A stretch of 64,000 bases of DNA from Candidatus Latescibacterota bacterium (GCA_965261395.1 OZ253462.1:6400001-6464000); one strand, 5' to 3'. Positions 10,417-36,402 are shown, numbered from the stretch's first letter. Notes: a model not told the origin generated them from the sequence alone. Numbers and translations are program-made.

Positions 10417-10433
10417 TTGAGAGGTGGAATAGG

Positions 10434-10892: not shown

Positions 10893-11411
10893 GGCGAGAA
10901 GCACCCACACAGGCACAAAACAGCAAAAATCGCGGTCGGGGGCCGTCGATTGGGACATGCCCCCCCTCGATTTCCTACCCGCGCTCCATCCTCTGCCCTG
11001 CCGCTGGCCGCGCCCCAGGCCCTACCGCCGCCGTCCCGACCACTCACCGACCCCACCAGCCCACCGCCCCACGCCGCGCTAGCTAGCCGAGGCCGTCCCC
11101 GCGCTGTCCGCGCCGCTCCCACCAACCCCATGCACCGCACCGGCCCAACCCTCGCCAGTGCCGCCGATCCGCGCCGAGGTCGCCCACCGTGCCCCCGTCG
11201 AGGCCGTCCGCCGCTGGCCGTCCGCCGCCGTCCCGATCCCGACCGCCCCGCTTCGCCCCCCATCAAGCCCGTCGAACCGGCCCGCAAAGAAAGTTCTTGA
11301 CTTGCTCAAATCACTCCATATATCCCAAAGTATCCGCCCTGTTGGTGGTGTGCCTGATCGCGTTTAACGAGCCTGCACCGCGTTGGATCCACCCCGAACC
11401 CCGAGAGCCGC

Positions 11412-11684
11412 TGTAACGCCGTCTAATCGACGAGCGGCCCAAGACGCCCGAACACACCGGCCAGCCCGAGGACGTGGGCGAGCGACGCAAAAGCGCGACG
11501 GGATTGGGTAAAGTTGCCGCTCAGAGCGTTTCCGCCGGCGTCCGCGATCGGCCGCAGCTCGGGGCCCAGCTCGTAACCTGCTTATTCCCGCCGATCCACC
11601 GCCCCAGACGCCGCCAGACGTAGCCGGCCGCCTCGATGCCAGCGACACCCCCGGACGCCGGCGCACGGCTCAGACGGCGTTACA
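11412..11684. mobile_element. Putative non-autonomous element or IS remnant with 13-bp perfect terminal inverted repeats (TGTAACGCCGTCT)
   Basis: 11412-11424 and 11672-11684 are exact reverse complements with TG...CA ends. No credible ORF inside and no target duplication seen. Confidence 0.45.
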
Positions 11685-14152
11685 TCACCCCAAGGTCGCT
11701 TCAACTCTGTGCCGCACGGTACGATCAACGCAGTAGGGTGAGCTTGCGCGTCAGGACGCCCTCGGTCGTTACCAGCCTATATAGGTAGATGCCGCTGGCC
11801 AGGGGGCGGCCCTCCTCGTCCTGGGCATTCCAGTGGAGGCGGTGATAGCCGGCCTGCTGCGGTCCTTGGCGTAAGACCGCCACCCGCTGCCCGATCACCG
11901 AGAACAGTTCTAGGCGCGTCGGCCCCGATTTCGGCAGGAAGTAGGAGAGGACCGTCTCGCTGTTGAACGGGTTGGGCACGTTCTGCTCAAGCTGCACCGT
12001 AGTTGGCTGGGCGGCTAGCGGCTTGGCACTGCCTTGTTCGATCTCGAAACGAAGGATCTCGGTAAAGTCCGCCAAGAACTTGTTTTGAGCTTTGTCCCAT
12101 ACCGTCATCTCAGCCAGCCCCCAAGTTCCAGGGACACTGCCTACCGGCAAGGTGATGGTGTACTCATACGTCTCGTACACCGTCGGATCGCCTTCAAAAT
12201 AGACCTTGTAATAGTCGTGCCGGTGATGCCTAAAAAAATGCTCTACGCCTTGGGGATCGCGTAAGTACATGTCGGTAGACCGATAGCCGCTGATATTGTC
12301 TTTGACTTTGAAGGTGATATCGACCCTCGTCTCTCCATTGGGAGTCTCCTTGTTAGTCGGTTCAGCCTCAATCGTGATGTTGTTTAGGTCGAGTGTGGGC
12401 CGTTGAGTATCCGGAGTGGTCGTCTGGATAGTGATAGAGGCCGGTTCTTCGTCAATGACTCGTTGCTCTTCTCTTAGCCCGTGTCCTGGATGGGTGAAGT
12501 ACACGCCACGGCCGTTGAGTGCAATATCTTCCATTATTATATAGTTGAGTTTCCACACGCCGCTGGGGAAGTAATCAGGAACCACCATATCAACAGAAGC
12601 GATCCCCGTTGCATGATCATAATCGCCCCAATTTTCTGAACGACGAGAAGCGGTCTCGGCGTCCCCATCGTTGAGCTGAGCCAACACTCCGTTTATGCCA
12701 TTGGCCTCAAAAAGCTTCCATTGAGCGGTCAATATCTGATACGGCCTCCCCGCTTCGGTGGCATCCCTGAGAGATAGCTCCATCGAATTCTTGACATAGA
12801 CCGGGGGGTCGGTGTCGGCGAGTGGATTGTCAATATACAACTTCCAACCAAAATCGGCCTGCGATTCGTGTCGTTCGTTGCCATGTCGGTCTGTAAGCGT
12901 GATCTGATCGGGTCGCCAGTAGCCATCAGCGATATACTTGGAAAGCGTGATCCTCCCGCGCAAGATATAGCCTATTTCAATGCGCCGGCCGTTGGTATCA
13001 ACAGGATCAAGCCAAAGATCAAAGAAGGTGCCTTTATCGCTGAAGATCCTCAGTTGAGACGCATCGACCAAGTCCAAGTCGCCCTCTTGGTGAAGCTCAA
13101 TTTCTATCGTTATCTCTTTATCTTCCTCCGGCTCGCCCTCGACTTGTATATCAACGCGCACGATTCGCCCCGGGTACACCACATCGGGATACAGATTGTA
13201 CACCTCAAAGGTCAGATCCTCACGAATCCGTGAGATATAGCGCGTCCCATGCATGATCCTGTTCTGTATGAACTCATACTTGGCGGGCGCTCTTGAGCGC
13301 AGCTTATCCGGCGTTACGATATAATAGCTGATGCTCTCGGCCATGTCCTCATCGGGATTTTTTGCATGGGCATAGGCAGAGACAAACTCGGTCTGCTTGG
13401 TCGTAGACCATCCCTCCTGGTCGCGCGAGCTGGCGAAACTTGCAGGGCCACCGGCTGAGGGTGCACAGCCTTGCTCAAGGACATCGAACAAGGATCCCGA
13501 TAAGAGGACCTCTTGACAGCGAGTGTCCTCTTCTTGCCCCTGGTCGGCTATGTTGCCATCGCTTTTATACCACCCTCCTAATTCGATCCAGTCTTGCTTG
13601 AGCTGCTCATCAAACAGATGCTCCCAGAGAAAGTGTGCCTTCTCGTGAAGGATCAAGCGGTGCATATAGGCTGGCCCAGACTCTTTGAAAGCTGATTCCA
13701 TGAACTCGATATAGCCTTCGGTTGTCCATGCCACCGCCGGCGCAGCGGGATAAAGAGGATGGGGTGTCCCATCTAGCCGGCGAACCAAGTAATTCAGACC
13801 GGCCGTATGACGCATTCCACTGGGAAACTCTTCCAGCATGGAGGCAATCGAAATCAGCTCTTCATTCTTGAATTCGGCGAAACGGCTCGAAGACTCCTTT
13901 GTCGTATTCTTTGTCAGCTCACGATAGTCCGGCACGTTCAAGCTGATGGCATAGCGCTCTTGCAATATACGTTCCAGCGCATGTCGATCGGAGCCATTAT
14001 CCGTTACAAACCGGACTACAGCACGATGGAGTCTTTTAGAAAAGAAACGCCCACGAACCCCTTCTATTTCAGCTAAAAGAGGTTCGGCGTAGGTGAAAGC
14101 CTCTCGGGCAACCGTTACGCGCCGTTGCCCATCCTCTACTGTGATCTGAATA

Positions 14153-15337
14153 GGCTTTGGTGCATGAATTGGTGTTTTTTTCGGTTGATCGGTTGAATAA
14201 AAACAGGCTCCTCAGTAGATTGAGCACGACTTTCGCCAAAAAACCCATGCTTTCTCGTCCAAGGAACCTGTCATGGCCAACCTATCGTCTTGCCCCTCTT
14301 CCGTCAAGCCTGGTCGCTCGCCTCGCCGTCGCTCCAACGTCGTGTACCGGGTACGTAATTGGGCCGACTATGAGGCCGGGCTGCAACAGCGCGGTAGTCT
14401 GACGGTGTGGTTCACGCCCCAGGCCGTCGAAGCTTGGTATTATCAAGGGCCGCCTCAGCGGGGGGCGCAATATACCTTTTCGGAGGTCGCCATCCAAACG
14501 GCGTTGACGCTGCGTCTTTTGTATCACTTGCCCCTACGCCAAACCGAGGGGTTTGTCGCTTCGGTGTTGGCCCTGATGGGCTTGGATCTGCGGGTGCCCG
14601 ATCACACGACCCTGTCGCGCCGTCAGGCGGGTTTAGCCGTGGCGTGGCCGCCCCAGCGGGGAGACCAACCGATGCACTTGGTGGTGGATTCGACCGGGCT
14701 GAAAGTGTATGGCGAAGGCGAATGGAAGGTGCGTCAGCACGGCTGGAGCAAGCGGCGCACGTGGCGCAAATTGCACCTCGGGGTTAATGAAGCCACCGGC
14801 GAGATCGTCGCGCAGACCTTGACGACGAATAGCCACGATGATGCGGGGCAGGTGGAGCCGTTGCTGGCACAGATCGAGGCCCCCGTGGAGGCGTTGGGCG
14901 GCGATGGGGCCTATGACAAACGCAAGGTGTTCAAGGCGTTGGCCGCGCCCGAGCAGGGGGCACCTATTCATCCGATCATTCCGCCGCGCAAGGACGCCAA
15001 AATCGAGCAACATGGCAACACCAACGCCGAGCCGTTGCCCCGCGATGAGACGATTCGAGCCATCCGCAAACGGGGCCGTCGAGGTTGGAAACACGAGAGC
15101 GGCTATCATCGACGCTCGGTAGCCGAAACGCAGATAGGCCGCTACAAACAGATACTTGGTGACACCTTGCGCACCCGAACCCTAACCAACCAACAGACCG
15201 AAGCGCGGTTGGGCTGTGCCTTGCTCAACCGGATGCGGGCGTTGGCGAAACCTGAGTCCTATCCGCTAACCAAAAAAGCGTAAATCACACGCGAAAGAAG
15301 CCAACACGGCCCCGACCGGTTTTCATGCAACAAAGCC
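14153..15337 (+). mobile_element. IS5 family (IS903 group) insertion sequence
   Basis: TIRs GGCTTTGGTGCATGAA / TTCATGCAACAAAGCC. 9-bp target duplication ATCTGAATA at 14144-14152 and 15338-15346. Confidence 0.95.
14273..15283 (+). CDS. IS5/IS903-group transposase
   Basis: RNWADYEAGLQQRGSLTVW, DSTGLKVYGEGEW, WRKLHLG, GDGAYD, GYHRRSVAE. Confidence 0.95.
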   Translation: MANLSSCPSSVKPGRSPRRRSNVVYRVRNWADYEAGLQQRGSLTVWFTPQAVEAWYYQGPPQRGAQYTFSEVAIQTALTLRLLYHLPLRQTEGFVASVLALMGLDLRVPDHTTLSRRQAGLAVAWPPQRGDQPMHLVVDSTGLKVYGEGEWKVRQHGWSKRRTWRKLHLGVNEATGEIVAQTLTTNSHDDAGQVEPLLAQIEAPVEALGGDGAYDKRKVFKALAAPEQGAPIHPIIPPRKDAKIEQHGNTNAEPLPRDETIRAIRKRGRRGWKHESGYHRRSVAETQIGRYKQILGDTLRTRTLTNQQTEARLGCALLNRMRALAKPESYPLTKKA

Positions 15338-15775
15338 ATCTGAATATCATGCTCTATATGGTCATCGCTTAATTCCCAAAAGGAAGGGACTACTTGGGGT
15401 TCATCCTCGTAAGAATCATTAGTATCCTGTGGTATAGATTCAAAAGTTCGCATCAAGCTATAGGCTTCTTGGGCCGTCCATGCGGTATCAAGATGGACAG
15501 AGTATTCCATCCTTAATTGCAAGGATGCACTGTGCGAAGTAACGTCCACGACTTCATCTAAAAGCTCTACCTGTACCGGCTCGATAAGGCTTGCGCTTTC
15601 AGTGCCGGAGATCGTCTCATCTATCTCCCAATGGTACGTATAGGCTTCGCTTTGGGAGGCTAAGACGCCAGACGCCAACGAGAAAACAACTGCGAGAGTG
15701 CGTATCATACTCAACCTGCTGTGTGATGGGTGATTAGCATGGACTTCTTGCCAAGATAGGAGATTCCCCTGTTAA

Positions 15776-16017
15776 GAAGCTGTCTGAAAACCCCTAGTGG
15801 CTTCGCGCGGCTGCAAAGCGGTGGTCGGAACACGCCCGGAATTCCCAGACAGCTTCCTAACAGACACAAGTCAAAAAGAAAAACGTGTGCAAAATACATA
15901 GAAAAACGTGTGCATACAAACATATAAGCTTAGGAACTCCGAAAAACAAGAACGCTCCATTCTAGGGATTCTCGACCACTGCTCAACACGGTCCGCCGGG
16001 AGTTTTCAGACAGCTTC
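15776..16017. mobile_element. MITE with 16-bp TIRs (GAAGCTGTCTGAAAAC) and TAA target duplication; internal extra right end at 15846-15856
   Basis: Perfect inverted repeats 15776-15791 / 16002-16017, flanked by TAA at 15773-15775 and 16018-16020. No transposase inside. Confidence 0.75.
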
Positions 16018-23152: not shown

Positions 23153-23683
23153 TCAGACGACCTGCTCAACCGCGGCCAAACTCTTCTTGTCCAGTTCGTC
23201 GAGGCGCGGAATTTCAAAGCGGTTGCCGTCCACGTCGGTGATCAGCAGCCGGTGGTCGCCGAGCCACTGGGCGTTTTCCGAGACGTTCTGGACGACGAAC
23301 TCGCGCGGGCCGCGATCGGTCTGCACATCCCAATAAGAGGTGCCGTATTCGTTGCGCACCGCATTGACCTGCTGAATCGCCGCGGTCAAATAGCGGCGGT
23401 CCAACTCCTCCTCAATCAAGGCGCGCGCCTCTAAGTCGAGCTGTGTGAGTTCGTCGATCATACAGATCTCCTCATCTTTGGCGTCGAGGAAGCAGATATG
23501 GCGGGTCGGGTGGGACAGCGGCGCGGCGCGGACGACCTTTACCTTCAGGTACGAGCGGTCGCCGTCAATGGTCAAGCGCAAGATCCAAGCCGGCTCGCGG
23601 AACAGGCGCAGCTTGCCAATTTCTACGTGCTCGGGATGAGTCACGGAAATCGGGGTGATCGCTGGTTTTTCGTTATCTGCCAT
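23153..23683 (-). CDS. DUF1854-family protein
   Basis: VRAAPLSHPTRHICFLD...LIEEELDRRY...WDVQTDRG...LLITDVDGNRFEIP...LDKKS. ATG at 23683 with GAGGA RBS. This family is usually paired with such ABC exporters. Confidence 0.85.
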   Translation of the reverse strand: MADNEKPAITPISVTHPEHVEIGKLRLFREPAWILRLTIDGDRSYLKVKVVRAAPLSHPTRHICFLDAKDEEICMIDELTQLDLEARALIEEELDRRYLTAAIQQVNAVRNEYGTSYWDVQTDRGPREFVVQNVSENAQWLGDHRLLITDVDGNRFEIPRLDELDKKSLAAVEQVV

Positions 23684-23697
23684 TGCGTCGTTCCTCA

Positions 23698-24011
23698 CTA
23701 GCCGCTGGTGGCCATAACCGCCGAAGTCTCGCGTTGGGTGTTTACCAGGTTGTAGAAAATGCCCTCGCGCGCCATCAGTTCCTCGTGCGTGCCAACCTCG
23801 GCTATTTTGCCCGCGTCGAGGACCACGAGGCGATCCGCGCTGCGCAGCGTCGAGAGCCGGTGGGCAATGGCAAAAGTCGTGCGGCCTTTGACGAGCCGCT
23901 GAATAGCCTCCTGGATCTTCTTCTCGGTCGGCGTGTCGAGCGACGAAGTCGCCTCGTCTAAGATCAGGATCCTCGGGTCGTGGAGAATGGCCCGCGCAAT
24001 GGAGATGCGCT
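23698..24011 (-). repeat. 314-bp direct repeat, copy 1: orphaned 3' end of the ABC exporter gene
   Basis: Near-identical to 28227-28540. Encodes [23 protein letters not shown]...SAVMATSG* with no start, and abuts the DUF1854 RBS. Confidence 0.95.
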
Positions 24012-24065
24012 ATCGGCCGTATATGAGTATGCTCAGACTTATGAAGAAATCTGCTTCATTGGAAC

Positions 24066-25121
24066 TTACTCAGCGCCCTCGCACCAAGAGAAGTTTATGC
24101 TGAACCGGTCAGCACCAAGGACTTCAGTAACCAAGTGGTTGGAATTCGTTGATACGCGGAAGAAGAATAGTCTATTGTGGGTAGGGGTAACTGCCTCAAC
24201 AACTTCTGTTGGATCAGACCCCATTGCTACTAATACACCATCATTCGGTGCCCGATACTCGGTATCGAGAAAGAGTACGCCCCGGAGTCGCTCGCCATTG
24301 GGATGACAATCGTTGTGGAAGCCTATATAATCGCCTAAGCGCATTTTGTGAGCTACCACTTCGGGGTTGTGCAAGGCGACATGACCGGTAGCGGTTGCGA
24401 GCCAAGAAAGCATAGCATCGGAACACAAGGCTGCCGTCAAATTGCCAATCGCTGGCCCGAGGCCAGGATCGCCAGTTTGAAAAATAAACTCATCCTGTAG
24501 GTAGAAGTCGGTTTCTGCACGGAACCAGCCTTGAAGTGTTTTCAACTCCTGTAAACACTGTTCTGCGATATCTCTTTGTAGAAAGTTATCAAAGATCGCA
24601 TGGGGAAAACCTTCGGCTCCCCAGAAGCGTCCTTGGTGGCACACCAATGTTTCTACGGTCATCCATTCGGGTGACAACACCGGGCTCAGCGCATTGAGAG
24701 ATTCGGAACTCGGAAGTGGTGTCATTGGGTGCTGCGTGAAATCAATTGCTGGACATGAACTGCGACCAACAATTGCATAGGCAGCTAGACGATGCAGCCC
24801 ATCCCAAAGTGTGCCATCCAAGCCAATCACAATCGGAGGTGGTTCGAAGCCTGTCCGGAGCCTTGCGGCTAGTTGCTGTATGTACTCGACGTGTTCTTTC
24901 TGTTCCGCCGGAAGTTGGGATATCTCAGCGTCGTGCTGGGCAAGTTGAATCGCTTGGCGAAGCGTACCAACATGCTCGCCCCACCTTTCGGCATCCAACA
25001 AGTATGCTAGCTGATCCTGGACGCCTACGATCCGGACGCAACGAGGGTGATAGGACGCCAGCAGTTCTCCGATATGCCAACGGTTCCCCTGTCCGTCGTC
25101 ATAGATGCTCTCGGATTTCAC
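24066..25121 (-). CDS. Fusion of a ParB/Srx-like N-terminal domain and a 2OG-Fe(II) oxygenase
   Basis: PPPIVIGLDGTLWDGLHRLAAY is ParB-like. FPHAIFDNFL...IGFHNDC...HNRLFFF...NHLVTEV...RFSINF supplies the HxD...H...RxS motif. GTG start overlaps the HExxH stop (GTGA). Confidence 0.8.
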   Translation of the reverse strand: MKSESIYDDGQGNRWHIGELLASYHPRCVRIVGVQDQLAYLLDAERWGEHVGTLRQAIQLAQHDAEISQLPAEQKEHVEYIQQLAARLRTGFEPPPIVIGLDGTLWDGLHRLAAYAIVGRSSCPAIDFTQHPMTPLPSSESLNALSPVLSPEWMTVETLVCHQGRFWGAEGFPHAIFDNFLQRDIAEQCLQELKTLQGWFRAETDFYLQDEFIFQTGDPGLGPAIGNLTAALCSDAMLSWLATATGHVALHNPEVVAHKMRLGDYIGFHNDCHPNGERLRGVLFLDTEYRAPNDGVLVAMGSDPTEVVEAVTPTHNRLFFFRVSTNSNHLVTEVLGADRFSINFSWCEGAE

Positions 25122-26356
25122 AGAGCGGCCTCTAGCTTGGCCATGGAGTGGAATACGTCGCCGCCAGCTTGGGTGAATGGGCAATGAATGGCTAGTAGGT
25201 TATGCACTTGGCTGAGTTGCTCAGACACTTCTTCAACACGGCGTGAGGCATATCGGGATAGCTGATGCTCTCCCATTGCTACGCGCCGCCAAAACGCCCC
25301 TACAATGGCAAACACGAAGTACCCGTGCAGCAACCCGCTCAAAGGACGTGGCTCCCCCTTCCAAGGCGATGGATAACATATGATATGCGCGGAGGAGTCA
25401 TACAGAGGTATCTGGCTCTCAAGTAAGTACAGCTTTTGATGGCTGTGTTCGTGTATCAGCGAGTCCAACAGATCGCCTAGGCCGATGGGTTTGCCAGCGA
25501 CTATGGGACATAAGAACACGGCACCCGGCACACTGTTATTGCTAAAGCTGCTGACAGTGTTCTGGTTGACCAGATCGCTATAGAACACTACATGGCGGTT
25601 GATGAGCAGGAGTTCATCCCATAGTTCGGGCCACTGACCGCGGAGTATCTCCAATGCTTCCCTTAGTACGCGGTCCGTAGCGGAAGCCTCGGCCACCATC
25701 GGTATGCCGAAGTCACAGCCGGACTCAAACGGCTTCGTGAGATACGGGCTTCTAGCATCAATTTCGACATGGCCTTCGTACAACGGTGTAGCCAATGCTC
25801 GCCAGCACTCCTCGGTGGCAATTTCGGTCCAGACGGGAAGTTGTGAATCGGCAGTCAACTCCACGAGCAGGCCGTCCACCAACAGACCAGACTTCTCCAC
25901 GCTGCAATGAACGGGTCTGCCGCCACTAAGTAGAGTACCTCCGGTCCCCGCGAGTGTGAACGCAACTTGAGGATGTAGCGTCGCCTCGTGACCGACGGTG
26001 CCTGACGCGAGTCCTGCCGCTAAGGCAAAGGGGTAGAAGTCCCGGTGATCGAAGCCGCGCTGGCGGCAGGCTTGGATCTCATCCTCGTCACCGTATATGA
26101 GTACCTCGGCCATAAGTTGCCACGAAACGAACGACGGATCGGATACTAGCAAGTCGCGTCCCTTAGAATTCAGACTTTCCAACACTGACAGTGCCGAGGC
26201 TGCCCAAGCACGGTAATCATCCACCTCATGGAGCATGGTGAGGATCGCGACGAGGTCTTCCCATTGCTGGCACATCCAAGCTAGCCTCACGCACTTAAGT
26301 GTCTGCTTAGATGCGGACGGGTCGGCGAACGACGAGCAGTCGTAACCGGTACTCAT
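25118..26356 (-). CDS. aKG-HExxH family peptide-modifying protein (putative beta-hydroxylase)
   Basis: SFSNNSVPGAVFL...DSLIHEHSHQKLYLLE...SPWKGEPRPLSGLLHGYFVF. ATGA-coupled to the radical SAM gene. Confidence 0.88.
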   Translation of the reverse strand: MSTGYDCSSFADPSASKQTLKCVRLAWMCQQWEDLVAILTMLHEVDDYRAWAASALSVLESLNSKGRDLLVSDPSFVSWQLMAEVLIYGDEDEIQACRQRGFDHRDFYPFALAAGLASGTVGHEATLHPQVAFTLAGTGGTLLSGGRPVHCSVEKSGLLVDGLLVELTADSQLPVWTEIATEECWRALATPLYEGHVEIDARSPYLTKPFESGCDFGIPMVAEASATDRVLREALEILRGQWPELWDELLLINRHVVFYSDLVNQNTVSSFSNNSVPGAVFLCPIVAGKPIGLGDLLDSLIHEHSHQKLYLLESQIPLYDSSAHIICYPSPWKGEPRPLSGLLHGYFVFAIVGAFWRRVAMGEHQLSRYASRRVEEVSEQLSQVHNLLAIHCPFTQAGGDVFHSMAKLEAAL

Positions 26357-27549
26357 GAATCAACCGGTGTCGCTACCAGTCCCAAGTCCTGACGAACCAC
26401 CCTATTCACATGGCGTATCAGGTGCGCGAGGTCTCCGCAGTATATCGAAGGGTTGGCGAATCCATTCGCTTTCGAGTAACGATGCGGCAAATGTCCTGCG
26501 CCACATACCGGCGCAAGTGAACAGCTAGTGCAGGACGGTGGAAGTTGCTGATGGAGTTCCATGCGCTGACGGACGAAATCCGAGGACAGAACTTCCGCGA
26601 ATGAGGAGGAGACGACGTTCCACTTTCGACCCAGAATGGGCACCCCATGGTCAGTGATCTTCATCACGTCCACGTCTTGGATCTCGCCGTTAGTTTCAAC
26701 AGTGAGGATGGAAAAGTATCCGGGACCGATTCCCTCGGTGCGGCTCTCTCCGCCGAGTGTCAGGTCAAGGACATTCTCGAAAAGTCGAACACGGAGGTCG
26801 CCCTTTGATGCGTACCAAGAGTCAAACGCTCGTTGAAGCCACTTCCCGTAAACGGCAGCGTTGTCTCGTATTCCCGGCTCAGCAATTCCCGGGGGGATAT
26901 TCTCGTATGTTCCATCCGGCAACAAGAAGTCTATGCTGGGAATTCCCATCCGTTGTGCCCAAGTCAGGGTTTCCACGGGGTCTGCCGCAAGATCAACAAC
27001 CGCAAGGACACCCCTGAACATATCCGCGTACCTTGGTTGGCTAGTCATCAACCGGATCGCTCCCTCAACAGCCTGAAAGGTAGGCCGCCCCTGGTGGTCA
27101 ATACGGTGTACGTCATGGGATTGAGGGCCATCGGCACTCACAGCAACCGTCATGTCGTAACTAGCGAAAAGATCAAGCCAAGCAGCGTCAAGCAGTACGC
27201 CGTTGGTTTGAAGGGACATGGAAAGCTGTCGGGATGCGTTGGGGAGTTCATTTCGGACTGCTTCAATGAGCGCCCTGAACCGCTGCTTGCCGAGGAGCAA
27301 AGGCTCCCCGCCATGAAAAACTACTGTAACTTCGTCAAAGCCAGTGTCATCCAGATACTCGGCGAGGCGGCGACCAAAGGCGGTCGCAGTACCAAGCGAC
27401 ATCAGCTTGGGTTGCTCTCGCCATGATTGGTCAGGATGCTCATAGACATAACAATAGTCGCAAGCCAGATTGCACCGGCTTGCGACTTTCAGTAGGAAGC
27501 TCGTCACAAACGGGGATCGCTCGCTCCCTTCAGGCACAGCCCCATTCAT
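26353..27549 (-). CDS. Cyclophane-forming radical SAM/SPASM peptide maturase (FxsB/YhhB-like)
   Basis: LLKVASRCNLACDYCYVY, FHGGEPLL, LQTNG, VETNGEI, CTSCSLAPVCGAGHLPHRYS...NPSIYC. Confidence 0.9.
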   Translation of the reverse strand: MNGAVPEGSERSPFVTSFLLKVASRCNLACDYCYVYEHPDQSWREQPKLMSLGTATAFGRRLAEYLDDTGFDEVTVVFHGGEPLLLGKQRFRALIEAVRNELPNASRQLSMSLQTNGVLLDAAWLDLFASYDMTVAVSADGPQSHDVHRIDHQGRPTFQAVEGAIRLMTSQPRYADMFRGVLAVVDLAADPVETLTWAQRMGIPSIDFLLPDGTYENIPPGIAEPGIRDNAAVYGKWLQRAFDSWYASKGDLRVRLFENVLDLTLGGESRTEGIGPGYFSILTVETNGEIQDVDVMKITDHGVPILGRKWNVVSSSFAEVLSSDFVRQRMELHQQLPPSCTSCSLAPVCGAGHLPHRYSKANGFANPSIYCGDLAHLIRHVNRVVRQDLGLVATPVDS

Positions 27550-27555
27550 TCGCTA

Positions 27556-27726
27556 CTAGCTCTTGTTGTGCTTATGGTGCTGCCTGTCGTAGCGAACAGC
27601 TACTGCGCTACCCTTGCCTCCGCGCTCTATGACCCGCGCTACTGCGGCTTGGAGTCTATGATTCTCAATAAGAGAGTTGTCCAAGGTCTTGGGATCGATG
27701 TTCGGGAGGGTGGTTTTCTGGCTCAT
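27556..27726 (-). CDS. RiPP (triceptide-type, YhhA-like) precursor peptide, 56 aa; absent from the ORF track
   Basis: Manual translation: MSQKTTLPNIDPKTLDNSLIENHRLQAAVARVIERGGKGSAVAVRYDRQHHKHNKS*. AAGGAG RBS. Stop lies 6 nt before the rSAM ATG. Confidence 0.9.
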   Translation of the reverse strand: MSQKTTLPNIDPKTLDNSLIENHRLQAAVARVIERGGKGSAVAVRYDRQHHKHNKS

Positions 27727-27793
27727 TTACTAGCTCCTTTCTTTGCGTTCGTTGCTAAAATAAATGGCACCAAGAATTTATTTAGAGCGAATA

Positions 27794-27822
27794 AATATAT
27801 CTCGTCGGCGTCCTAAGGTCAA
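27794..27822 (-). promoter_or_regulatory. sigma70-like promoter of the RiPP operon (TTGACC-17-TATATT)
   Basis: Near-consensus hexamers with 17-bp spacing, about 70 nt upstream of the precursor ATG. Confidence 0.65.
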
Positions 27823-28226
27823 GAGCTACTAGTGGGTAGTGACTCAGTTTGAAATCCAGCTTCCGAGAGCCGAAATCAGGCCCGGAACTTGCATAGGCGC
27901 AAAAAGGCGAGGGGAGTAGTGGATCGCCCTACCAGCCTACCGAGGCCGAGGATAACCGAGCGCTAGGGAAAACCCGTGGCGTCCTATCCGTCGAACTTGC
28001 TGATCGGAGTCAAGCCTTTAGTCGATGATCTTCATCGTCTTTTTGTACAACTTCGTCCACTTGTGGAAATGTTCCGCCTTGTGGAGATGTCTAAAAGGAA
28101 ATATCAGTGCTCGGTCGAAAAGTTCCTGAGTTTCATATCTCTCAAACGTTTTTCCGGCCATTATCTTTTTACTTGTGTGGCCAGAAATCGCTCACTGTAG
28201 ATTTTGGGTCATTCAGCCTCCGCAAA

Positions 28227-28540
28227 TTACCCTCCCGTAGCCATGACAGCCGAAGTCTCGCGTTGGGTGTTTACCAGATTGTAGAAAATGCCCTCGCGCG
28301 CCATCAGTTCCTCGTGCGTGCCAACCTCGGCTATTTTGCCCGCGTCGAGGACCACGAGGCGATCCGCGCTGCGCAGCGTCGAGAGCCGGTGGGCAATGGC
28401 AAAAGTCGTGCGGCCTTTGACGAGCCGCTGAATAGCCTCCTGGATCTTCTTCTCGGTCGGCGTGTCGAGCGACGAGGTCGCCTCGTCTAAGATTAGTATC
28501 CTCGGGTCGTGGAGAATGGCCCGCGCAATGGAGATGCGCT
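28227..28540 (-). repeat. 314-bp direct repeat, copy 2: current 3' end of the ABC exporter
   Basis: About a dozen mostly synonymous mismatches to copy 1; ends SAVMATGG*. Confidence 0.95.
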
Positions 28541-30446
28541 GCTTCTCACCGCCGGCCAGCTTGTTGCCCTGCTCCCCGACGACCATGTCGTACCCGTCCG
28601 GCTGTTTGACGATGAACTCGTGGGCGTTGGCCGCGCGGGCCGCGCGCAAAATCTCGTCGAAAGTGGCACCGGGCTTGCCGTAGGCGATGTTTTCGGCAAT
28701 CGTGCCGTTGAACAAAAACGACTGCTGGGCCACCATGCCGATCTGCGAGCGCAGGTCGCGCAGGCGAATGTTGCGGATATCGACCCCGTCGATGGCGAGG
28801 CGGCCATGCGAGACATCGTAAAAGCGCGTGATTAGGTTGATCAGCGTACTCTTGCCCGTCCCAGACTTGCCGACTAGACCGATCATCTCGCCCGGCTGCA
28901 CCACCAAATCGATGTCGCGCAGGACGATTTTGCCTGGGTCGTAGCCAAAGGCCGCGTTCTCAAAGGCGACTTGACCCTCAATCGTGGGGATGCGCTGGGC
29001 ACTGGGATTGTCAAAAGGCTCGGAGGGCGCATCGACGATTTCAAAGATGCGCTCAGCACCGGCAAAGGCCCGCACCATGAAACTGTAGAAGTCGCCAAAC
29101 CACTTGAGCGGGTGGTAGAGCATCCACAGATAGGCGATAAAGGCCATCAACTCCCCTAGCGACAGGTCGCCCTCAACGATCTGCTGACCGCCGAAATACC
29201 ACACGAAGAACCCGCCAAAGCTCATAAAGAAATTGGTCACCATAAAGAAGACCAACCAAGCGCGCTCCGCGCTGACGCTGATTTGGCGCAAGGCGTGGTT
29301 GCGCTGATCAAAGCGCTCGGACTCGCGGTGCTCTTGCGCGAAAGCCTTGACCACGCGGATGCCGGAGATCGACTCGTTGAGATGAGTCGTCAGCCGCGAC
29401 CAGCGCACCGACCAACGGCCCCAGAAGCGTTGCAGGCGATTCCAGATGAGGCTCGAGCCAATGATGATCGGCGGCACCGGGGCCAGCACGTAGAGGGTCA
29501 GCTCCCAGTTCATGTAGAACAGCAGCCCCAAGATGCCGACGATCATCGCGGCATTGGAGACGATGTAGGGCATGTCAAAGAGCAGAAAGTCTTCGACCAT
29601 CTCCGAGTCGTTGTTCATGCGGGAGATCAAAGCGCCGACCTTGCGCTTGTCGTAAAAGCGCAGGGGCAGGTACTGGAGCGCCTTGAACAAGTCCGTGCGC
29701 AAGTGCTCGATGGCGCGGAAGCCGACCCGGGTGTTGAGCCAGCGGCGCACCACGCCGATGCACCACTCGACGACGCCGATGACAAAAAGGCCGCCGACCA
29801 GCCAGTAGAGTAGGTTGATATTAGCGGCGGCACCGGGGACGAGAACGTCGTCGATGAGATGCTTAACGATATAGGGCGGTGCCAGCTCCAGCAGCGAGGA
29901 TAACACGGTCAGACCCAGTAGCAACGCTAGCTGGAGGCGATAGGGCAGCATGTAGCCGATCAGGCGCTTAAAGGTATCGAATTTGGCGATGCAGACCGGG
30001 CATATCCCACCCACCTCGGGCAGGCGGCGCTGGCATTGCTCGCAGTGCGTGCGGTCCAGCTCGTGGGGCAGGTTGAGGTCTTGACCCTCTTTGAGCTGCT
30101 CAATGCCCTCGGCGACCTCGGCGAATTTGGCCGCCAGTGAGTTGGAGTAATACAAATGAGCGGGTGCACCCGCCTCGCGCTCCAGTTCCAAGCGCCCGCC
30201 GCCGACTAGCGCCTCAATGCGGGCAGACTTGACCGCTTGCAGCGCAAACTCCACTTCACCGCTCGCGCCGTTGGGCACGAGGACCATCAGGCGCTCCGAC
30301 GTCACGACCAACCAGCGTTGCTCGAAGCGGTCCTCGCCGGCCATATCCGTGGCGACCTGGATCAAGACTTTTTCCTCGCGGCCCTTGCGCGAGCGAACTT
30401 TGGCTTCGACGGTGTGCGGCAGATTTTCCAAAAAGAAGGTGGACAT
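28227..30446 (-). CDS. ABC exporter (fused TMD-NBD, MsbA-like) with N-terminal extension and CxxC..CxxC motif
   Basis: GKSGTGKST, LAGGEKQRISIARA, LDEATSS, AHRLST; CEQC...CPVC before the TMD. Confidence 0.93.
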   Translation of the reverse strand: MSTFFLENLPHTVEAKVRSRKGREEKVLIQVATDMAGEDRFEQRWLVVTSERLMVLVPNGASGEVEFALQAVKSARIEALVGGGRLELEREAGAPAHLYYSNSLAAKFAEVAEGIEQLKEGQDLNLPHELDRTHCEQCQRRLPEVGGICPVCIAKFDTFKRLIGYMLPYRLQLALLLGLTVLSSLLELAPPYIVKHLIDDVLVPGAAANINLLYWLVGGLFVIGVVEWCIGVVRRWLNTRVGFRAIEHLRTDLFKALQYLPLRFYDKRKVGALISRMNNDSEMVEDFLLFDMPYIVSNAAMIVGILGLLFYMNWELTLYVLAPVPPIIIGSSLIWNRLQRFWGRWSVRWSRLTTHLNESISGIRVVKAFAQEHRESERFDQRNHALRQISVSAERAWLVFFMVTNFFMSFGGFFVWYFGGQQIVEGDLSLGELMAFIAYLWMLYHPLKWFGDFYSFMVRAFAGAERIFEIVDAPSEPFDNPSAQRIPTIEGQVAFENAAFGYDPGKIVLRDIDLVVQPGEMIGLVGKSGTGKSTLINLITRFYDVSHGRLAIDGVDIRNIRLRDLRSQIGMVAQQSFLFNGTIAENIAYGKPGATFDEILRAARAANAHEFIVKQPDGYDMVVGEQGNKLAGGEKQRISIARAILHDPRILILDEATSSLDTPTEKKIQEAIQRLVKGRTTFAIAHRLSTLRSADRLVVLDAGKIAEVGTHEELMAREGIFYNLVNTQRETSAVMATGG

Positions 30447-30455
30447 GGATGATCT

Positions 30456-32690
30456 CTATTCCTTAATGGCGATGATCTCGGCCACTTCTTTTTGCAAATT
30501 GACCAACTCGTAAAAGGTCCCCTGCTTCGCCATAAGTTCCGCGTGCGTCCCCGATTCGACGATGCGACCGTCGTCGAGGACCATCAGCCGGTCGGCGTTG
30601 CGCAACGTCGAAAGCCGGTGGGCAATGGCCACGGTGGTGCGGCCCTCGACGAGCCGCTGAATCGCCTCCTGGATCTGCAACTCGGTCTCCACATCGACCG
30701 AGGCAGTGGCTTCGTCGAGGATCAGTACGCGGGGGTTGTGGAGGATGGCGCGGGCAATGGAGACGCGCTGGCGCTCTCCCCCCGAAAGCCCGGCCCCCTT
30801 CTCTCCGACTTGGGTCTCATAGCCATCGAGCTTGGCCATGATGAAGTTGTGGGCGTTGGCCGCGCGGGCGGCTGCCATGATGTCCGCAAAGGAGGAGCCG
30901 GGCCGGCCGTAGCCGATGTTCTCGGCAATGGTGCCGGAAAAAAGCACCGGCTCCTGCAGCACGATGCCGATCTGCGAGCGCAAGTCGCGCAGGGCGATGC
31001 CGCGGATGTCGATCCCGTCGATCTCAATGGCCCCGTAGTCGACGTCGTAGAAGCGGGCGATGAGGTTGACGGTCGTCGTCTTGCCGACTCCGGATTTGCC
31101 CACGAGGCCGATCATCTCGCCCGGCTGGATGTCCAAGTCAAAGTCCTTCAGCACCGGCTTGCTCTTGTCGTAGCCAAAGGTGACGCCCCGGAAGCGAATG
31201 GCTCCCTGCATCCTCGGCACCCGTTGCGCGGTCGGGTCCTCGTATGCCTCGGGCTGGGTGTCGATGACCTCGAAGATGCGCTCGGCCCCGGCAAAGGCCC
31301 GCGACATCCAGGCGTTGACTTGGCCGAACCACTCCAAGGGGCCGTAAAACAGCCACATATACGAGTAAAAGGCCAACAGCGTGCCCAAGGTCATCTTGCC
31401 TCCGAGGACCTGCTGTCCGCCGAGCAGCCAGACGACCAAGACCCCCAAACCCGTCAAGAACGTGATGGTAGCGAAGAACACGCCGCGATTTATCGCGGTC
31501 TTTTCGGCGACTTCGCGCAGCCTAGCATTGGGCTTGGCAAAGGCCGCTATTTCCCGGTCCTCTTGGGCAAACGCCTTGACCACGCGGATGCCGGCCAGCG
31601 TCTCTACCGTGCGCTCGGTCAGGCCAGACCAGACCTCGCCCCACTTGACGAAGTACCCGCGCAGCCGCTTCCAAAAGATCACCCCCCACAGCATGATCAG
31701 CGGCACGGGCACCAACACGTATAGGCTCAACGACCAACTCATCCAGAACAAAAACCCGAGGATGCCGAAGACCATCAGGCCGTTGATGACGATATAGGGC
31801 AAGCCATCGACGAGGAAGTCCTGCAACATCCCGGCGTCGCGGGTGGCCCGCGAGATGAGAGAGCCGACCTTGCGCTTGTCGTAAAACTGCAAGGACAGCA
31901 TTTCCAACCGGCGATAGAGGAGCGAGCGAATATCCGCGGTGAGCTGCGCGCCGAGCCAAGTCGCAATCCAGCCGTGGGCCCATTCAGCGACCCAAGCAAA
32001 GAAGCGGATGCCGACCAAGCCCAAGACGAACAGGCCCAACAGGTGGATGCGCTCGTCAAACCCCGTGGCACTGCCCTCCACCGGGACCAATACCTCATCG
32101 ACGATGTGCTTGGTAATCAGCGGTGGGGCCAATTCTGCGACCGTGGTGGCAATGGAGGCAAAAGCCAAGATGCCCGCTTTGAGCTTGTACGGGCCGATGT
32201 AGCTGGCGATGCGCTTGAGGGTCGCCAGTTTCTTGATACACGCCGGACAGATGCCGTTTTTCTCCGGCAAGAGCTGGTGACAGCGCTCACAGCGGGTCCG
32301 GTCCAAGTGCCCGTTGACGGCAAAGGGCTGGCCCTGGCGCAACTGCTCCAAGCCCCGCGCCACCTCGGACATTTTGTCGGCCTCCGAGCGCGTGTAGCCC
32401 AGCGCCAAGGTCGGTGCATCCACGCGCTCGATCTCCAACTGGCCACCGCCGACGAGCGCGTCGGTGCGCACCCCGGCCAGCGAGGCGAGTGGGATATCGA
32501 TGACCTCGCCCTGAGCAGGTACGACGAGAATCCGACGCGGGGTGGCCACCAGCCACTGGCGACCAAAGCGCCCGTCGGCATCCAAATCCGTAGCGGCGCG
32601 GATTAGCACCTCCTCCTCAGCGGGCAAGGCGGCGGCAATCCGCGCGGCCATGGGCGCGTCGGCTGACTCTAGCAGTTTTTGCATACTCAT
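30456..32690 (-). CDS. ABC exporter (fused TMD-NBD), paralog of the adjacent gene; likely heterodimer partner
   Basis: GKSGVGKTT, LSGGERQR, LDEATAS; CERC...CPAC. Confidence 0.93.
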   Translation of the reverse strand: MSMQKLLESADAPMAARIAAALPAEEEVLIRAATDLDADGRFGRQWLVATPRRILVVPAQGEVIDIPLASLAGVRTDALVGGGQLEIERVDAPTLALGYTRSEADKMSEVARGLEQLRQGQPFAVNGHLDRTRCERCHQLLPEKNGICPACIKKLATLKRIASYIGPYKLKAGILAFASIATTVAELAPPLITKHIVDEVLVPVEGSATGFDERIHLLGLFVLGLVGIRFFAWVAEWAHGWIATWLGAQLTADIRSLLYRRLEMLSLQFYDKRKVGSLISRATRDAGMLQDFLVDGLPYIVINGLMVFGILGFLFWMSWSLSLYVLVPVPLIMLWGVIFWKRLRGYFVKWGEVWSGLTERTVETLAGIRVVKAFAQEDREIAAFAKPNARLREVAEKTAINRGVFFATITFLTGLGVLVVWLLGGQQVLGGKMTLGTLLAFYSYMWLFYGPLEWFGQVNAWMSRAFAGAERIFEVIDTQPEAYEDPTAQRVPRMQGAIRFRGVTFGYDKSKPVLKDFDLDIQPGEMIGLVGKSGVGKTTTVNLIARFYDVDYGAIEIDGIDIRGIALRDLRSQIGIVLQEPVLFSGTIAENIGYGRPGSSFADIMAAARAANAHNFIMAKLDGYETQVGEKGAGLSGGERQRVSIARAILHNPRVLILDEATASVDVETELQIQEAIQRLVEGRTTVAIAHRLSTLRNADRLMVLDDGRIVESGTHAELMAKQGTFYELVNLQKEVAEIIAIKE

Positions 32691-34012: not shown

Positions 34013-35152
34013 ATGGAGAAGGGTATGTCAAATTCGACTTTGGAAAATGATGCCTACCTCAACGAAGAAGAGAGCGATGTTGAAGAAGAGAGGGAAGATC
34101 CGGAAGAAAAAATTACAACTCCATTCAACCCTGAGCAGATCAAAATTCGTACCACCCAGATCGTCGTCGAACAGCTTATATCGCGTATCAAGCACGAGGA
34201 AATTGACCTAGCACCAGATTTCCAACGACAGGCCGGCATCTGGAACGACGAGCGCAAGAGCCGCCTCATCGAATCGCTGTTGTTGCGCATTCCCCTCCCG
34301 GTATTCTATGTCGCCGCTGACGAGTCTGAAAAGTGGTCGGTCGTCGACGGCATTCAGCGCATGAAGACCATCTATGACTATGTGACGGGCAAGTTCCCTC
34401 TGAAACGACTTGAATATCTAACCAAACTCAACGGATGTACGCACGACGAACTGCGGAGGCCATTGCAGCGACGAATCAGTGAAACCCAACTTATCGTCAA
34501 CGTCATAGAGTCGGGTACTTCACCAGACGTGCTGTTCAATGTCTTTCGACGTATCAATACAGGTGGCATGACGTTGAATGGACAGGAAATACGCCATGCA
34601 CTGAACCCAGGTCCAGTTCGGGATTATCTGAAGGAACTTGCCGAATCCGACGAGTTCAAAAAAGCCACGGACGGTAGCATCAATCCAAAACGGATGGCTG
34701 ATCGGGAATGCGTACTCCGATTCCTCGCTTTCCATATCACTCCGTGGGAAAACTATTCCTCCAACGATCTCAATGGCTACCTTGTACGCACTATGCAGGA
34801 AATCAACGACATGAGTGAGTGTGAGCGAAACAACTTCGCTGTTGATTTCCGGAAAGCAATGTTAGCAGCGTCCGATATATTCGGTGAGAACGCATTCCGC
34901 AAACCATCTAGCGAACGCCGACTTCCAATTAATAAGGGTATTTTTGAGGCATGGACCGTTCAGTTGGCGCGTTGTTTGCCAGAGCAGATAAGAGTGCTTG
35001 TCGAACGGCGGAATGACACCCAATGTCGTTTCAAAGAACTGATAGCAGAAGACAGCGATTTTCTAGAGGCCATCTCCTATACGACTGGATCACCACAAAA
35101 CGTACAGAAGCGATTCCAAGCAATTGAGCAACTTGTCAAGGAGTTCGTCTGA
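34013..35152 (+). CDS. nsnA: DUF262 (ParB-like) protein, Menshen NsnA-like
   Basis: PDFQR...W...SRLIESLLLRIPLP...VVDGIQR...FRRINTGG..LNGQEIR. The start may be at 34025. Confidence 0.75.
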   Translation: MEKGMSNSTLENDAYLNEEESDVEEEREDPEEKITTPFNPEQIKIRTTQIVVEQLISRIKHEEIDLAPDFQRQAGIWNDERKSRLIESLLLRIPLPVFYVAADESEKWSVVDGIQRMKTIYDYVTGKFPLKRLEYLTKLNGCTHDELRRPLQRRISETQLIVNVIESGTSPDVLFNVFRRINTGGMTLNGQEIRHALNPGPVRDYLKELAESDEFKKATDGSINPKRMADRECVLRFLAFHITPWENYSSNDLNGYLVRTMQEINDMSECERNNFAVDFRKAMLAASDIFGENAFRKPSSERRLPINKGIFEAWTVQLARCLPEQIRVLVERRNDTQCRFKELIAEDSDFLEAISYTTGSPQNVQKRFQAIEQLVKEFV

Positions 35153-36402
35153 TGCTTCGCAATATCAAGCTGATGCACTTCAAGTGCTTTGAGCAGTTGG
35201 AGCTGAATTGCAAACAGCTCAATCTTCTCTGCGGTTTGAACGGGATGGGCAAGAGTAGCGTCATCCAAGCATTACTTATACTCCGGCAATCGTTCGAAAC
35301 TGGAGAATTACTCGCCGGCAGACTGGCCTTGAACGGTGAGCGAGTAGCTGTAGGTACAGGCGCGGATGTGCTGTTTGAAGACGCTGAGCACGATGTGTTG
35401 GAATTCGTACTTGAAAGCGACAAAATAGAAACACCATGGAAAATGGAGTTTGATTGTCTTAGGACTAGTACGGCGGATAGTATGGCGGACATTCTGGATA
35501 CATCGTCCAGCAGGACTAGGGCAATCAAAAGCCAAATCGACGAAAAAACGGACAAATTTTTGAAAGAGCGTCTGGATAAGGACCAAAGCCAAATCGACGG
35601 AGAGGTAATCCGAGAGGTACTCACAGAGTTTTTGTACATGCCTGTAGAATGGCGTGATATGCCACCGTTTGGAGGGGAACTCGTTTACATAAATGCAGGA
35701 CGGGTCGGGTCCCGGCAGTTGTACCCAGTCTCCACCGACGTGTTGACTAGACGAGGTGACTTCGGTGAAAGCGGCGAGTATGCGTGGGACTATCTAAATC
35801 GCCATCAGAACGACCTCCTGCAAGCGGACGATCCTCGTTGTGTTGAAGGAAGCGACCGTCGGCTGTCCACCGTCGTTGATCACTGGCTACAGGATGTGTG
35901 CCCCGGTGCTCATCTACAACTTGAAGAGGTGAAAGCTGCTGACGCGGTCATCGCCGGATTTACGTTCGACCGGGAGGACGATGTGGCTTCCCGACGGCAT
36001 CGTGCGACCAATGTCGGGTTTGGTCTGTCGTACGCGCTGCCGGTCATCCTTGCCCTGCTTTCAAAGCCCGGCACACTATGCCTGATTGAGAACCCAGAAG
36101 CTCACCTGCATCCCCGTGGCCAGACCAAGCTGGCCGAGTTGGCAGCCCGTGCGTCGAAGGCGGGCGTCCAAGTGATTGCTGAGACCCATAGCGATCACTT
36201 CATGGATGGCGTGCGGATCGCGGTCCGGGACGGCCTTATCGAACCAGAAGACGCCGCATTTCATTACTTTGAGCGTAAAGGCAACCAGACGGTCGTCACC
36301 TCGCCGCAGGTAGACTCAGACGGACGGCTGTCGTCGTGGCCGGTCGGGTTCTTCGATCAGCATGACGATAATCTGGCAAGGCTACTTGCACCAAAGGAAT
36401 GA
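35152..36402 (+). CDS. nsnB: ABC-type ATPase with DUF3696 C-terminus, Menshen NsnB-like
   Basis: FKCF...GLNGMGKSS, NVGFGLSY.LP, IENPEAHLHP, ETHSDH, GRLSSWPVGFFDQ. Confidence 0.8.
   Translation: MLRNIKLMHFKCFEQLELNCKQLNLLCGLNGMGKSSVIQALLILRQSFETGELLAGRLALNGERVAVGTGADVLFEDAEHDVLEFVLESDKIETPWKMEFDCLRTSTADSMADILDTSSSRTRAIKSQIDEKTDKFLKERLDKDQSQIDGEVIREVLTEFLYMPVEWRDMPPFGGELVYINAGRVGSRQLYPVSTDVLTRRGDFGESGEYAWDYLNRHQNDLLQADDPRCVEGSDRRLSTVVDHWLQDVCPGAHLQLEEVKAADAVIAGFTFDREDDVASRRHRATNVGFGLSYALPVILALLSKPGTLCLIENPEAHLHPRGQTKLAELAARASKAGVQVIAETHSDHFMDGVRIAVRDGLIEPEDAAFHYFERKGNQTVVTSPQVDSDGRLSSWPVGFFDQHDDNLARLLAPKE

Follow-up and report, generated by a model that had tools for sequence, protein, structure and literature searches.

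A predicted triceptide islet between direct repeats of an exporter gene end in a Candidatus Latescibacterota genome

When a suicide plasmid carrying the 3' fragment of a gene, stop codon included, integrates as a circle by 'Campbell' recombination, the gene stays intact and a promoterless orphan fragment is left downstream. PMC13626634 describes e14, in icd of Escherichia coli K-12 (icd/icdC), as an element located in the 3' end of a protein gene, with an alternative, mostly synonymous gene end and an orphan C-terminal pseudogene at its far end; excision is described there as recombining the icd end and the orphan. The microcin H47 island of E. coli, as far as PMC3191183 describes it, is a small ribosomal-peptide island that encodes no recombinase and is flanked by extensive imperfect direct repeats; empty sites are known from relatives, and recombination in several identity blocks of these repeats gives hybrid sites. 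The element considered here is an islet of 4,215 nucleotides (nt) in a 64,000-nt stretch of Candidatus Latescibacterota bacterium (GCA_965261395.1 OZ253462.1:6400001-6464000), hereafter the window. Its four genes, predicted to form a cluster for a ribosomally synthesised and post-translationally modified peptide (RiPP), all lie on the strand of an ATP-binding cassette (ABC) exporter gene, ABC2, two copies of whose 3' end bound the islet.

The topology was identical to that of laboratory Campbell insertion-duplication, from which the islet differed in being a natural, apparently polymorphic chromosomal feature with biosynthetic cargo. While e14, a prophage of 15 kb, has a site-specific system of its own, the islet was found without a recombinase. 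The repeats of the microcin H47 island are not described, in the text available of PMC3191183, as a duplicated gene end that keeps its target whole; experiments demonstrated the mobility of that island, also in a recA-deficient host (PMC3191183), whereas the islet is known here from sequence alone and homologous recombination is favoured for it. A literature search, too thin to claim absence, found no paper in which a triceptide or any other RiPP cluster of Latescibacterota is arranged in this way. In reading direction, the layout was ABC2 body, copy 2, islet, copy 1 and DUF1854, with the following exporter genes and repeats:

30456-32690, minus strand: ABC1, first half-transporter of the exporter pair, 744 amino acids (aa); Pfam ABC_membrane and ABC_tran
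28227-30446, minus strand: ABC2, intact half-transporter, 739 aa, its 3' end being repeat copy 2
28227-28540, minus strand: repeat copy 2, 3' end of intact ABC2, ending ...AVMATGG; 5' side joined to the native ABC2 body
28227-28248, minus strand: foreign, 'recoded' end of copy 2 (repeat positions 293-314); eight differences from copy 1, same peptide except Ser to Gly, TAA stop
23698-24011, minus strand: repeat copy 1, orphaned original 3' end of ABC2, ending ...AVMATSG and TAG; joined to the native spacer and DUF1854
23153-23683, minus strand: DUF1854 gene, 176 aa, native downstream partner of ABC2; PF08909, 143.8 bits

The 314-nt direct repeats proposed by an earlier, sequence-only reading of the window were recovered by alignment, gap-free, both on the minus strand and identical at 302 of 314 positions (positions 1-314 are counted along the reading direction of the exporter gene). 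The homology started with the last two bases of the Gln codon in LAGGEKQ and ended with the stop codon, TAA in copy 2 and TAG in copy 1. As the 3' end of the paralogue ABC1 (30499-30798) was just 73 % identical to the reference repeat copy, the two copies are much more alike than paralogues would be. The target reading frame was preserved by the repeats, as had been claimed, ABC2 being intact at 739 aa, and the frame of the orphan tail was closed by a TAG exactly at the junction with the islet (junction codon 24009-24011).

Relatives were gathered by a DUF1854 search of species-representative genomes, which yielded 80 loci, mostly labelled Latescibacterota. The 22 closest (L001-L022) displayed DUF1854 proteins 85-95 % identical and ABC2 proteins of 91-97 % aa identity; all 22 were islet-free and shared the gene order of the window itself (PAPS reductase, ABC1, ABC2, DUF1854, BtrH-like, Yip1, HlyD). 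The distance from ABC2 stop to DUF1854 start was 11-116 nt in the 21 of them that were measured (L020 was left out). Throughout the 80 loci, ABC2 was directly upstream of DUF1854 in 69, a tail remnant only was present in seven and none in four (one of which at a contig end). None of the 80 contained a match to the four islet proteins or to islet DNA, nor a second copy of the ABC2 tail. The islet is thus an insertion into a formerly contiguous ABC2-DUF1854 junction, as the sequence-only reading had supposed when it called for such a comparison of relatives. Its identification of copy 1 as the original gene end was borne out as well: copy 1 aligned to relatives through the stop codon, and the spacer between copy 1 and the DUF1854 start (TAGTGAGGAACGACGCAATG) was letter-for-letter the same in L002 and L010, whereas the alignment of copy 2 stopped at position 304 for 21 of the 22 closest loci. 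L010 was the closest relative on every flank (87.7-95.3 % nt identity). To judge from its composition, the islet is foreign and horizontally acquired, with a GC content of 0.533 against 0.60-0.615 in the flanks and, in its three enzyme genes, a GC content at third codon positions (GC3) of 0.51-0.62 against 0.68-0.84 in flanking genes.

The twelve differences between the copies (positions 44, 47, 65, 263, 293, 296, 302, 305, 306, 308, 311 and 314) were unevenly distributed, with three in 44-65, none in 66-262, one at 263 and eight in 293-314 (hypergeometric P = 6e-8 for at least eight of twelve within the last 22 nt). Counted by codon, nine were synonymous, one changed a residue (AGC to GGA, Ser to Gly) and one changed the stop codon; all four differences in positions 1-292 were synonymous, as were five of the six changed codons in 293-311. 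Since nearly all were synonymous, the variants arose in working ABC2 genes and not by decay of an orphan or pseudogene. The last 22 nt of copy 2 displayed six to eight differences from each of the 22 relatives, compared with one to six for copy 1 (a single one from L010), and at five of the eight terminal sites the base of copy 2 was absent from all 22. Despite this nucleotide divergence the encoded peptide was AVMATGG, against an AVMATSG that is invariant in the clade. An end that is foreign and yet encodes the C-terminus of the clade indicates that the islet arrived with the end of another ABC2 orthologue attached. L024 and L028 encode the same C-terminal peptide with ~76 % nt identity, and the donor of the 22-nt end was probably about as distant as these loci. 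The proposal of a recoded 314-bp replacement 3' end must therefore be narrowed, since copy 2 consists of host sequence up to position 292 and is foreign only in its last 22 nt. In e14 the whole replacement gene end is element-derived; on the gene side of the islet this holds for just 22 of 314 nt, and non-native variants are present in the orphan too.

With L010 as reference, copy 2 displayed the L010 state at positions 44, 47, 65 and 263 and copy 1 at 293, 302, 305, 306, 308, 311 and 314, position 296 being the one exception; each copy was native on its chromosome-facing side and non-native on its islet-facing side. Non-native variants that face the islet in both copies are the pattern left by one reciprocal crossover, and the Campbell-type integration proposed earlier fits this arrangement. 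From the variants, one exchange can be placed between positions 65 and 293, as read from one genome, in which a fixed core and a free crossover look alike.

Homologues in other assemblies were traced through their proteins, and co-location on a contig was read from equal contig sizes. By exact protein look-up, the radical S-adenosylmethionine (SAM) enzyme of the islet (rSAM) belonged to a cluster (at least 90 % identity) of ten distinct sequences on many contigs. A cluster of orphan-tail open reading frames (ORFs) displayed the ABC2 tail preceded by islet-end residues (variants MLRDARH, MLRDGRQ, MLRGGRQ and MSLNILRDDRQ), and the islet-to-orphan junction was encountered in at least five sequence variants, on other contigs and from several sources. 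Elsewhere this junction was open (MLRDGR(H/Q) followed by RISIARAIL...), with a His or Gln codon where the window has TAG. An ATG a few codons upstream of the open junction gave an orphan ORF of 110-114 aa, and all junction-bearing orphan tails seen were free of frameshifts, called ORFs being the only ones visible. Contig sizes of 733,409, 45,821 and 13,985 nt appeared in records of an rSAM homologue as well as of an orphan ORF; precursor homologues were listed on contigs of 47,012, 733,409 and 75,760 nt, sizes that matched rSAM records; and the 733,409-nt size was also listed for a DUF1854 record and for an ABC2 ending in MATGG.

This MATGG end was displayed by the window and the 733,409-nt contig, whose ABC2 proteins were 98.0 % identical to each other, while proteins 99.6 % and ~99.5 % identical to these two alleles ended in MATSG. 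In an ABC2 tree built without the 103 repeat-encoded residues, the two MATGG alleles fell into two sub-clades of one clade (98/92), each beside MATSG sisters. A grouping of the window and L010 as sisters to the exclusion of the 737-aa ABC2 type was rejected: it was the window type and the 737-aa type that formed the clade (98/92), with L010 outside. Presence of the islet looks polymorphic, through one gain and at least three repeat-mediated losses or through more than one gain. Between the 733-kb contig and the window, rSAM was 91.7 % identical, compared with 98.0 % for ABC2 and 99.4 % for DUF1854; the lower rSAM identity suggests separate histories of islet and flanks, although faster evolution would also explain it.

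No Pfam or NCBIfam match to an integrase, resolvase or transposase was obtained for the four islet genes or for a 47-aa ORF in the islet, and Pfam detected no tyrosine or serine recombinase in the 56 ORFs of the window that were scanned, the window being 64 kb of a 6.55-Mb genome. This agrees with the statement of the sequence-only reading that the islet has no integrase; its suggestion that an integrase had been lost finds no remnant to show that one was ever present. The sole mobility gene among the scanned ORFs encoded a DDE transposase (DDE_Tnp_1_5 and DDE_Tnp_1; 14273-15283, plus strand), located 9 kb from the islet and without link to it, and the window contained no transfer RNA (tRNA) gene. 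At the islet left end and the junctions, Rfam gave no match near the gathering score and one chance-level match (expectation value, E, 0.41); no microhomology or other structure was found at the right junction. Three further candidates were tried and rejected: a donor DUF1854 remnant at the islet left end, prompted by a resemblance (MTQNLQ-stop-AIS), for which blastn and tblastn gave nothing beyond the ABC2 tail (best DUF1854 match, E 0.59); a hairpin at the right junction, whose DNA fold was unremarkable (z = -1.02); and a plasmid or phage vehicle, the 4,215-nt islet being without blastn match in plasmid or phage collections.

Taken together, the evidence tips slightly towards an insertion-duplication made by host homologous recombination through a Campbell-type crossover of an islet circle, a step that is probably reversed by homologous recombination of the host as well. 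A circle composed of the islet and one ABC2-tail homology arm would have undergone a single reciprocal crossover inside the chromosomal ABC2 tail, at a point within positions 66-292 of the 314-nt homology. Because the arm includes the stop codon, ABC2 would stay whole and an orphan tail would be left before DUF1854; and because the islet has no recombinase of its own and the crossover would lie inside long homology, host homologous recombination is taken as the agent. Through the same repeats the islet could be lost precisely, with restoration of the MATSG end, and the copies could undergo gene conversion. The 22 nt at the islet left end would be left over from an earlier location of the islet, behind a more distant ABC2 orthologue, and the right junction would have been built on near-clade or local sequence. 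The islet of the distant donor may first have been captured in a near-clade strain by a homeologous crossover near positions 264-292, the finished structure having since been passed on, lost and perhaps re-inserted through the long repeats. The circular intermediate, RecA dependence, repeated excision and re-integration and a distant first donor are steps that we infer.

A bolder version, which we regard as doubtful, is that of a recombinase-free mobile cassette equipped with a portable 314-nt homology arm, which would cycle between the chromosome and a 4.5-kb circle, and between strains, by means of host homologous recombination alone. With each cycle the central part of the arm would be renewed from whichever host it then occupied, the edge nearest the cargo would be frozen as a synonymously 'recoded' relic, and the target gene would never be broken.

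Several points weigh against integration of a circle. Three linked sites in a single cluster (44, 47 and 65) in effect carry the reciprocal pattern, and L010, the proxy for the native state, falls outside the clade of the window in the ABC2 tree. Positions 66-262 are identical in both copies and carry window-specific variants (8-24 differences from each relative), so that in-situ duplication or later gene conversion fits equally well. The edges of the homology are unequal, the 3' edge being ~36 % diverged and the 5' edge (1-43) identical, which is unexpected for one old travelling arm. The circular form, the empty-site read and the crossover itself are reconstructed rather than directly seen, and whether other strains carry the islet is deduced from one C-terminal residue and equal contig sizes, not from DNA. 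The contrast between 91.7 % (rSAM) and 98.0 % (ABC2) on the 733-kb contig could be explained by faster evolution under vertical descent. Finally, the recombinase scan covered 64 kb of the 6.55-Mb genome and left out ORFs shorter than 70 aa, except two in the islet.

The unequal edges and the window-specific variants in 66-262 of both copies are what a one-off capture without a circle would lead one to expect. Linear DNA from a distant relative would have recombined homeologously at about 264-292, its far end would have been joined illegitimately to tail position 1, and the host's 292 nt would have been duplicated in situ; the islet, not mobile, would then have descended vertically in the W+V clade. 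This is conceivable, though we would not expect it, and the same holds for the later course it implies, in which gene conversion would keep the copies alike and occasional repeat-mediated deletion would remove the islet. All islet-marked ABC2 alleles belong to one clade (98/92), which is compatible with a single gain, and the right junction has neither microhomology nor other structure. Such a capture leaves unexplained, however, why copy 1 displays majority-type bases at 44, 47 and 65 and copy 2 the L010 type; replacement of the islet-facing end of the orphan would need a donor that also carried the islet, and at least three independent losses would be needed on the ABC2 tree. It also requires a duplication at the illegitimate joint, which in homology-facilitated illegitimate recombination is a rarer outcome than deletion.

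Improbable, in our judgement, is a non-autonomous integrative element comparable to a cis-mobilisable element, for which the repeats would be attL and attR, with a short core within 66-292 that a tyrosine or serine recombinase encoded elsewhere in the genome would recombine. Attachment (att) sites are generally far shorter than the 314-nt homology, of which at least 65 nt of gene homology lie 5' of any possible core, with further homology 3' of it; no tRNA gene or other usual target was found nearby, and no recombinase domain was detected either in the islet or among the 56 ORFs scanned in the window. Those ORFs come from 64 kb of 6.55 Mb, which leaves room for a recombinase acting in trans. 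Moreover, integrase-borne elements such as e14 in icd, as described in PMC13626634, have the same topology and a replacement gene end, and the microcin H47 island is described in PMC3191183 as moving without its own recombinase in a recA-deficient host.

Very improbable is an islet that was ancestral at this site and was deleted in all relatives: the repeats would permit clean deletion, but none of the 80 loci, which bear several phylum-level labels, carries the islet, the GC3 of the islet is foreign, both the duplication and the foreign 22 nt point to insertion, and rSAM relatives outside the group of at least 89 % identity fall to ~60 % (59.2 % for P0123) and then to ~45 % for actinobacterial FxsB. 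An assembly artefact, in which strain variants or an assembly-graph bubble were laid out in tandem, is hardly credible even though the genome is of metagenome type and strain mixtures do yield repeats that differ at a dozen sites, since the same islet-orphan junction occurs in at least five sequence variants on other contigs from several sources, MATGG and MATSG alleles are interleaved, a MATGG-ending ABC2 is found on a second contig (733,409 nt) whose size is also listed for rSAM, DUF1854 and orphan records, and the right junction offers no shared overlap for an assembler to join; the misassembly of strain variants that the sequence-only reading had named as its possible undoing is accordingly very unlikely.

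The islet itself was composed of the following features:

28018-28161, minus strand: unsupported 47-aa ORF in the islet left end, without Pfam or NCBIfam family match
27727-28226, minus strand: islet left end, non-coding, GC 0.47, with a sigma-70-like site (27822-27794) ~70 nt upstream of the precursor gene
27556-27726, minus strand: precursor peptide, 56 aa, core ...VRYDRQHHKHNKS, with three aromatic-X-basic motifs (YDR, HHK, HNK)
26353-27549, minus strand: radical SAM/SPASM cyclophane-forming maturase (rSAM), 398 aa, FxsB family, YhhB-like; Pfam Radical_SAM, TIGR04269
25118-26356, minus strand: alpha-ketoglutarate (aKG)-HExxH-type peptide beta-hydroxylase, 412 aa; TIGR04267
24066-25121, minus strand: fusion of a ParB/sulfiredoxin (Srx)-like N-domain with a YhhC-like 2-oxoglutarate (2OG)-Fe(II) oxygenase, 351 aa; 2OG-FeII_Oxy_3/4
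24012-24065, minus strand: right-end spacer of 54 nt, from the oxygenase stop codon to the copy 1 junction

Triceptides are defined in PMC11499958 by aromatic-X-X motifs, YhhB being described there as making an HNR cyclophane, and YhhC is described in PMC12186529 as an Asp beta-hydroxylase whose product is erythro-beta-hydroxy-Asp. The cargo is predicted to be a cluster of this type (three-residue cyclophane RiPP), given an FxsB maturase and an adjacent precursor with the corresponding motifs. The maturase scored above the cut-off of TIGR04269 (384.3 bits, cut-off 370) and below that of NF041707 YhhB (410.9, cut-off 445); the precursor and the oxygenase remained below those of NF041705 YhhA (22.5 bits, cut-off 36) and NF041706 YhhC (77.2 bits, cut-off 150). 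With all three Yhh scores below cut-off, this is a related but distinct triceptide cluster and not a set of YhhA, YhhB and YhhC equivalogs. It shares with YhhABC/FxsB-type clusters an aromatic-X-basic precursor, a radical SAM/SPASM enzyme of the FxsB family and a YhhC-related 2OG oxygenase, and differs from them by an additional aKG-HExxH hydroxylase, a ParB/Srx-like domain fused to the oxygenase and a Latescibacterota host. Three precursor homologues (80-88 % identity) kept Y46, H50, H51 and H53 and a basic third position in each motif, so that the aromatic residues and basic third positions are kept in all four precursor sequences.

The aKG-HExxH hydroxylase clearly exceeded the cut-off of TIGR04267 (106.6 bits, cut-off 40); its N-terminal ~230 aa gave no Pfam match. 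The 351-aa form of the oxygenase starts at a GTG overlapping the upstream stop; the database version starts at residue 22 of a longer reading, the GTG being confirmed there. Pfam found nothing usable on the N-terminal half of this protein (24615-25121, minus strand), in which a WDGxHRLxA motif was invariant in nine sequences. Profile matching linked the domain to sulfiredoxin at E 0.42 (atlas leads at 0.84), and a structural model (predicted local distance difference test 82.5) gave ParB-N, Srx, Noc as its top, weak PDB fold matches (E 0.03-2). Weakly but consistently, these leads point to a ParB/sulfiredoxin-like fold and not to a recombinase fold. In the representative library, stand-alone proteins of ~135-160 aa consisting of this domain were encountered as well.

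The ABC pair and DUF1854 have NF052233, 'cyanophycin metabolism-associated ABC transporter', and NF052234 as their best-matching families, with scores below the equivalog cut-offs: 644 (ABC1) and 647.8 bits (ABC2) against 880, and 100 bits for DUF1854 against 150. The form of DUF1854 in databases is likewise 176 aa, and ABC1 was kept upstream of ABC2 in relatives. That the targeted exporter could also export the peptide, as the sequence-only reading had proposed, finds no support in these results: ABC2 lies directly upstream of DUF1854 in 69 of 80 islet-free loci and belongs with a cyanophycin-linked family, and no peptidase domain was detected by Pfam in ABC1 or ABC2. A promoter scan revealed no promoter for DUF1854 inside copy 1, and promoter-like sites overall were not enriched (four found, 2.7 +/- 1.6 expected).

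The ABC2-DUF1854 junction was variable even without an islet. The spacer, 11-14 nt in most close relatives, contained unrelated short inserts in L004 (116 nt), L012-L014 (67-76 nt) and L005 and L009 (36-40 nt), one family of which displayed a GC-rich hairpin. Seven loci (L024, L028, L031, L038, L042, L049 and L058) had lost ABC1 and ABC2 and kept an ABC2-tail remnant of ~29 to ~90 codons directly before DUF1854, with at least three different 5' break points; the short ORFs P0283 and P0284 provided further ones. These remnants suggest that the tail holds something DUF1854 needs (a promoter or translational coupling) or that it is a deletion hotspot. Five loci labelled Poribacteria (L071, L074, L075, L078 and L079) displayed ABC2 without an upstream ABC1, gaps of roughly 240-960 nt before DUF1854 and acidic extensions at the ABC2 C-terminus (...DSEDDDE). 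In L019, ~5.3 kb (10523-15850) were inserted between DUF1854 and the BtrH-like gene, and L020 harbored, ~7 kb upstream of the main locus (2289-2618), a second, partial ABC nucleotide-binding fragment and a weak DUF1854-like match.

Elsewhere in the window, a low-GC pair (0.485 and 0.536; 34013-36402, plus strand) beside the PAPS reductase gene encoded a GmrSD_N/DUF262-type protein followed by an AAA_15/AAA_21/DUF3696 ATPase. Among the closest loci only L010 and L012 had a GmrSD homologue, and the pair is probably a variable defence islet. Two other plus-strand regions look like defence-type modules: 3847-8015, with DUF6883 followed by a 1,276-aa SNF2/helicase protein with an N-terminal DUF4926, and 9940-10892, with a TIR_2 protein followed by an 8xMP membrane protein.

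The islet is a clean natural example of a small biosynthetic cluster that entered a conserved operon without breaking it and without a mobility gene, and screens relying on integrases, transposases or tRNA sites would miss such islets. Its cargo is a predicted, uncharacterised Latescibacterota triceptide pathway, in which three motifs are combined with two hydroxylases and a ParB/Srx-like fusion. If the repeats mediate repeated gain and loss, long gene-end duplications beside lower-GC cargo would be a search signature for such cassettes. Should the reading as a recombinase-free mobile cassette prove true, small biosynthetic clusters would have a general and easily overlooked means of spreading in uncultured phyla.

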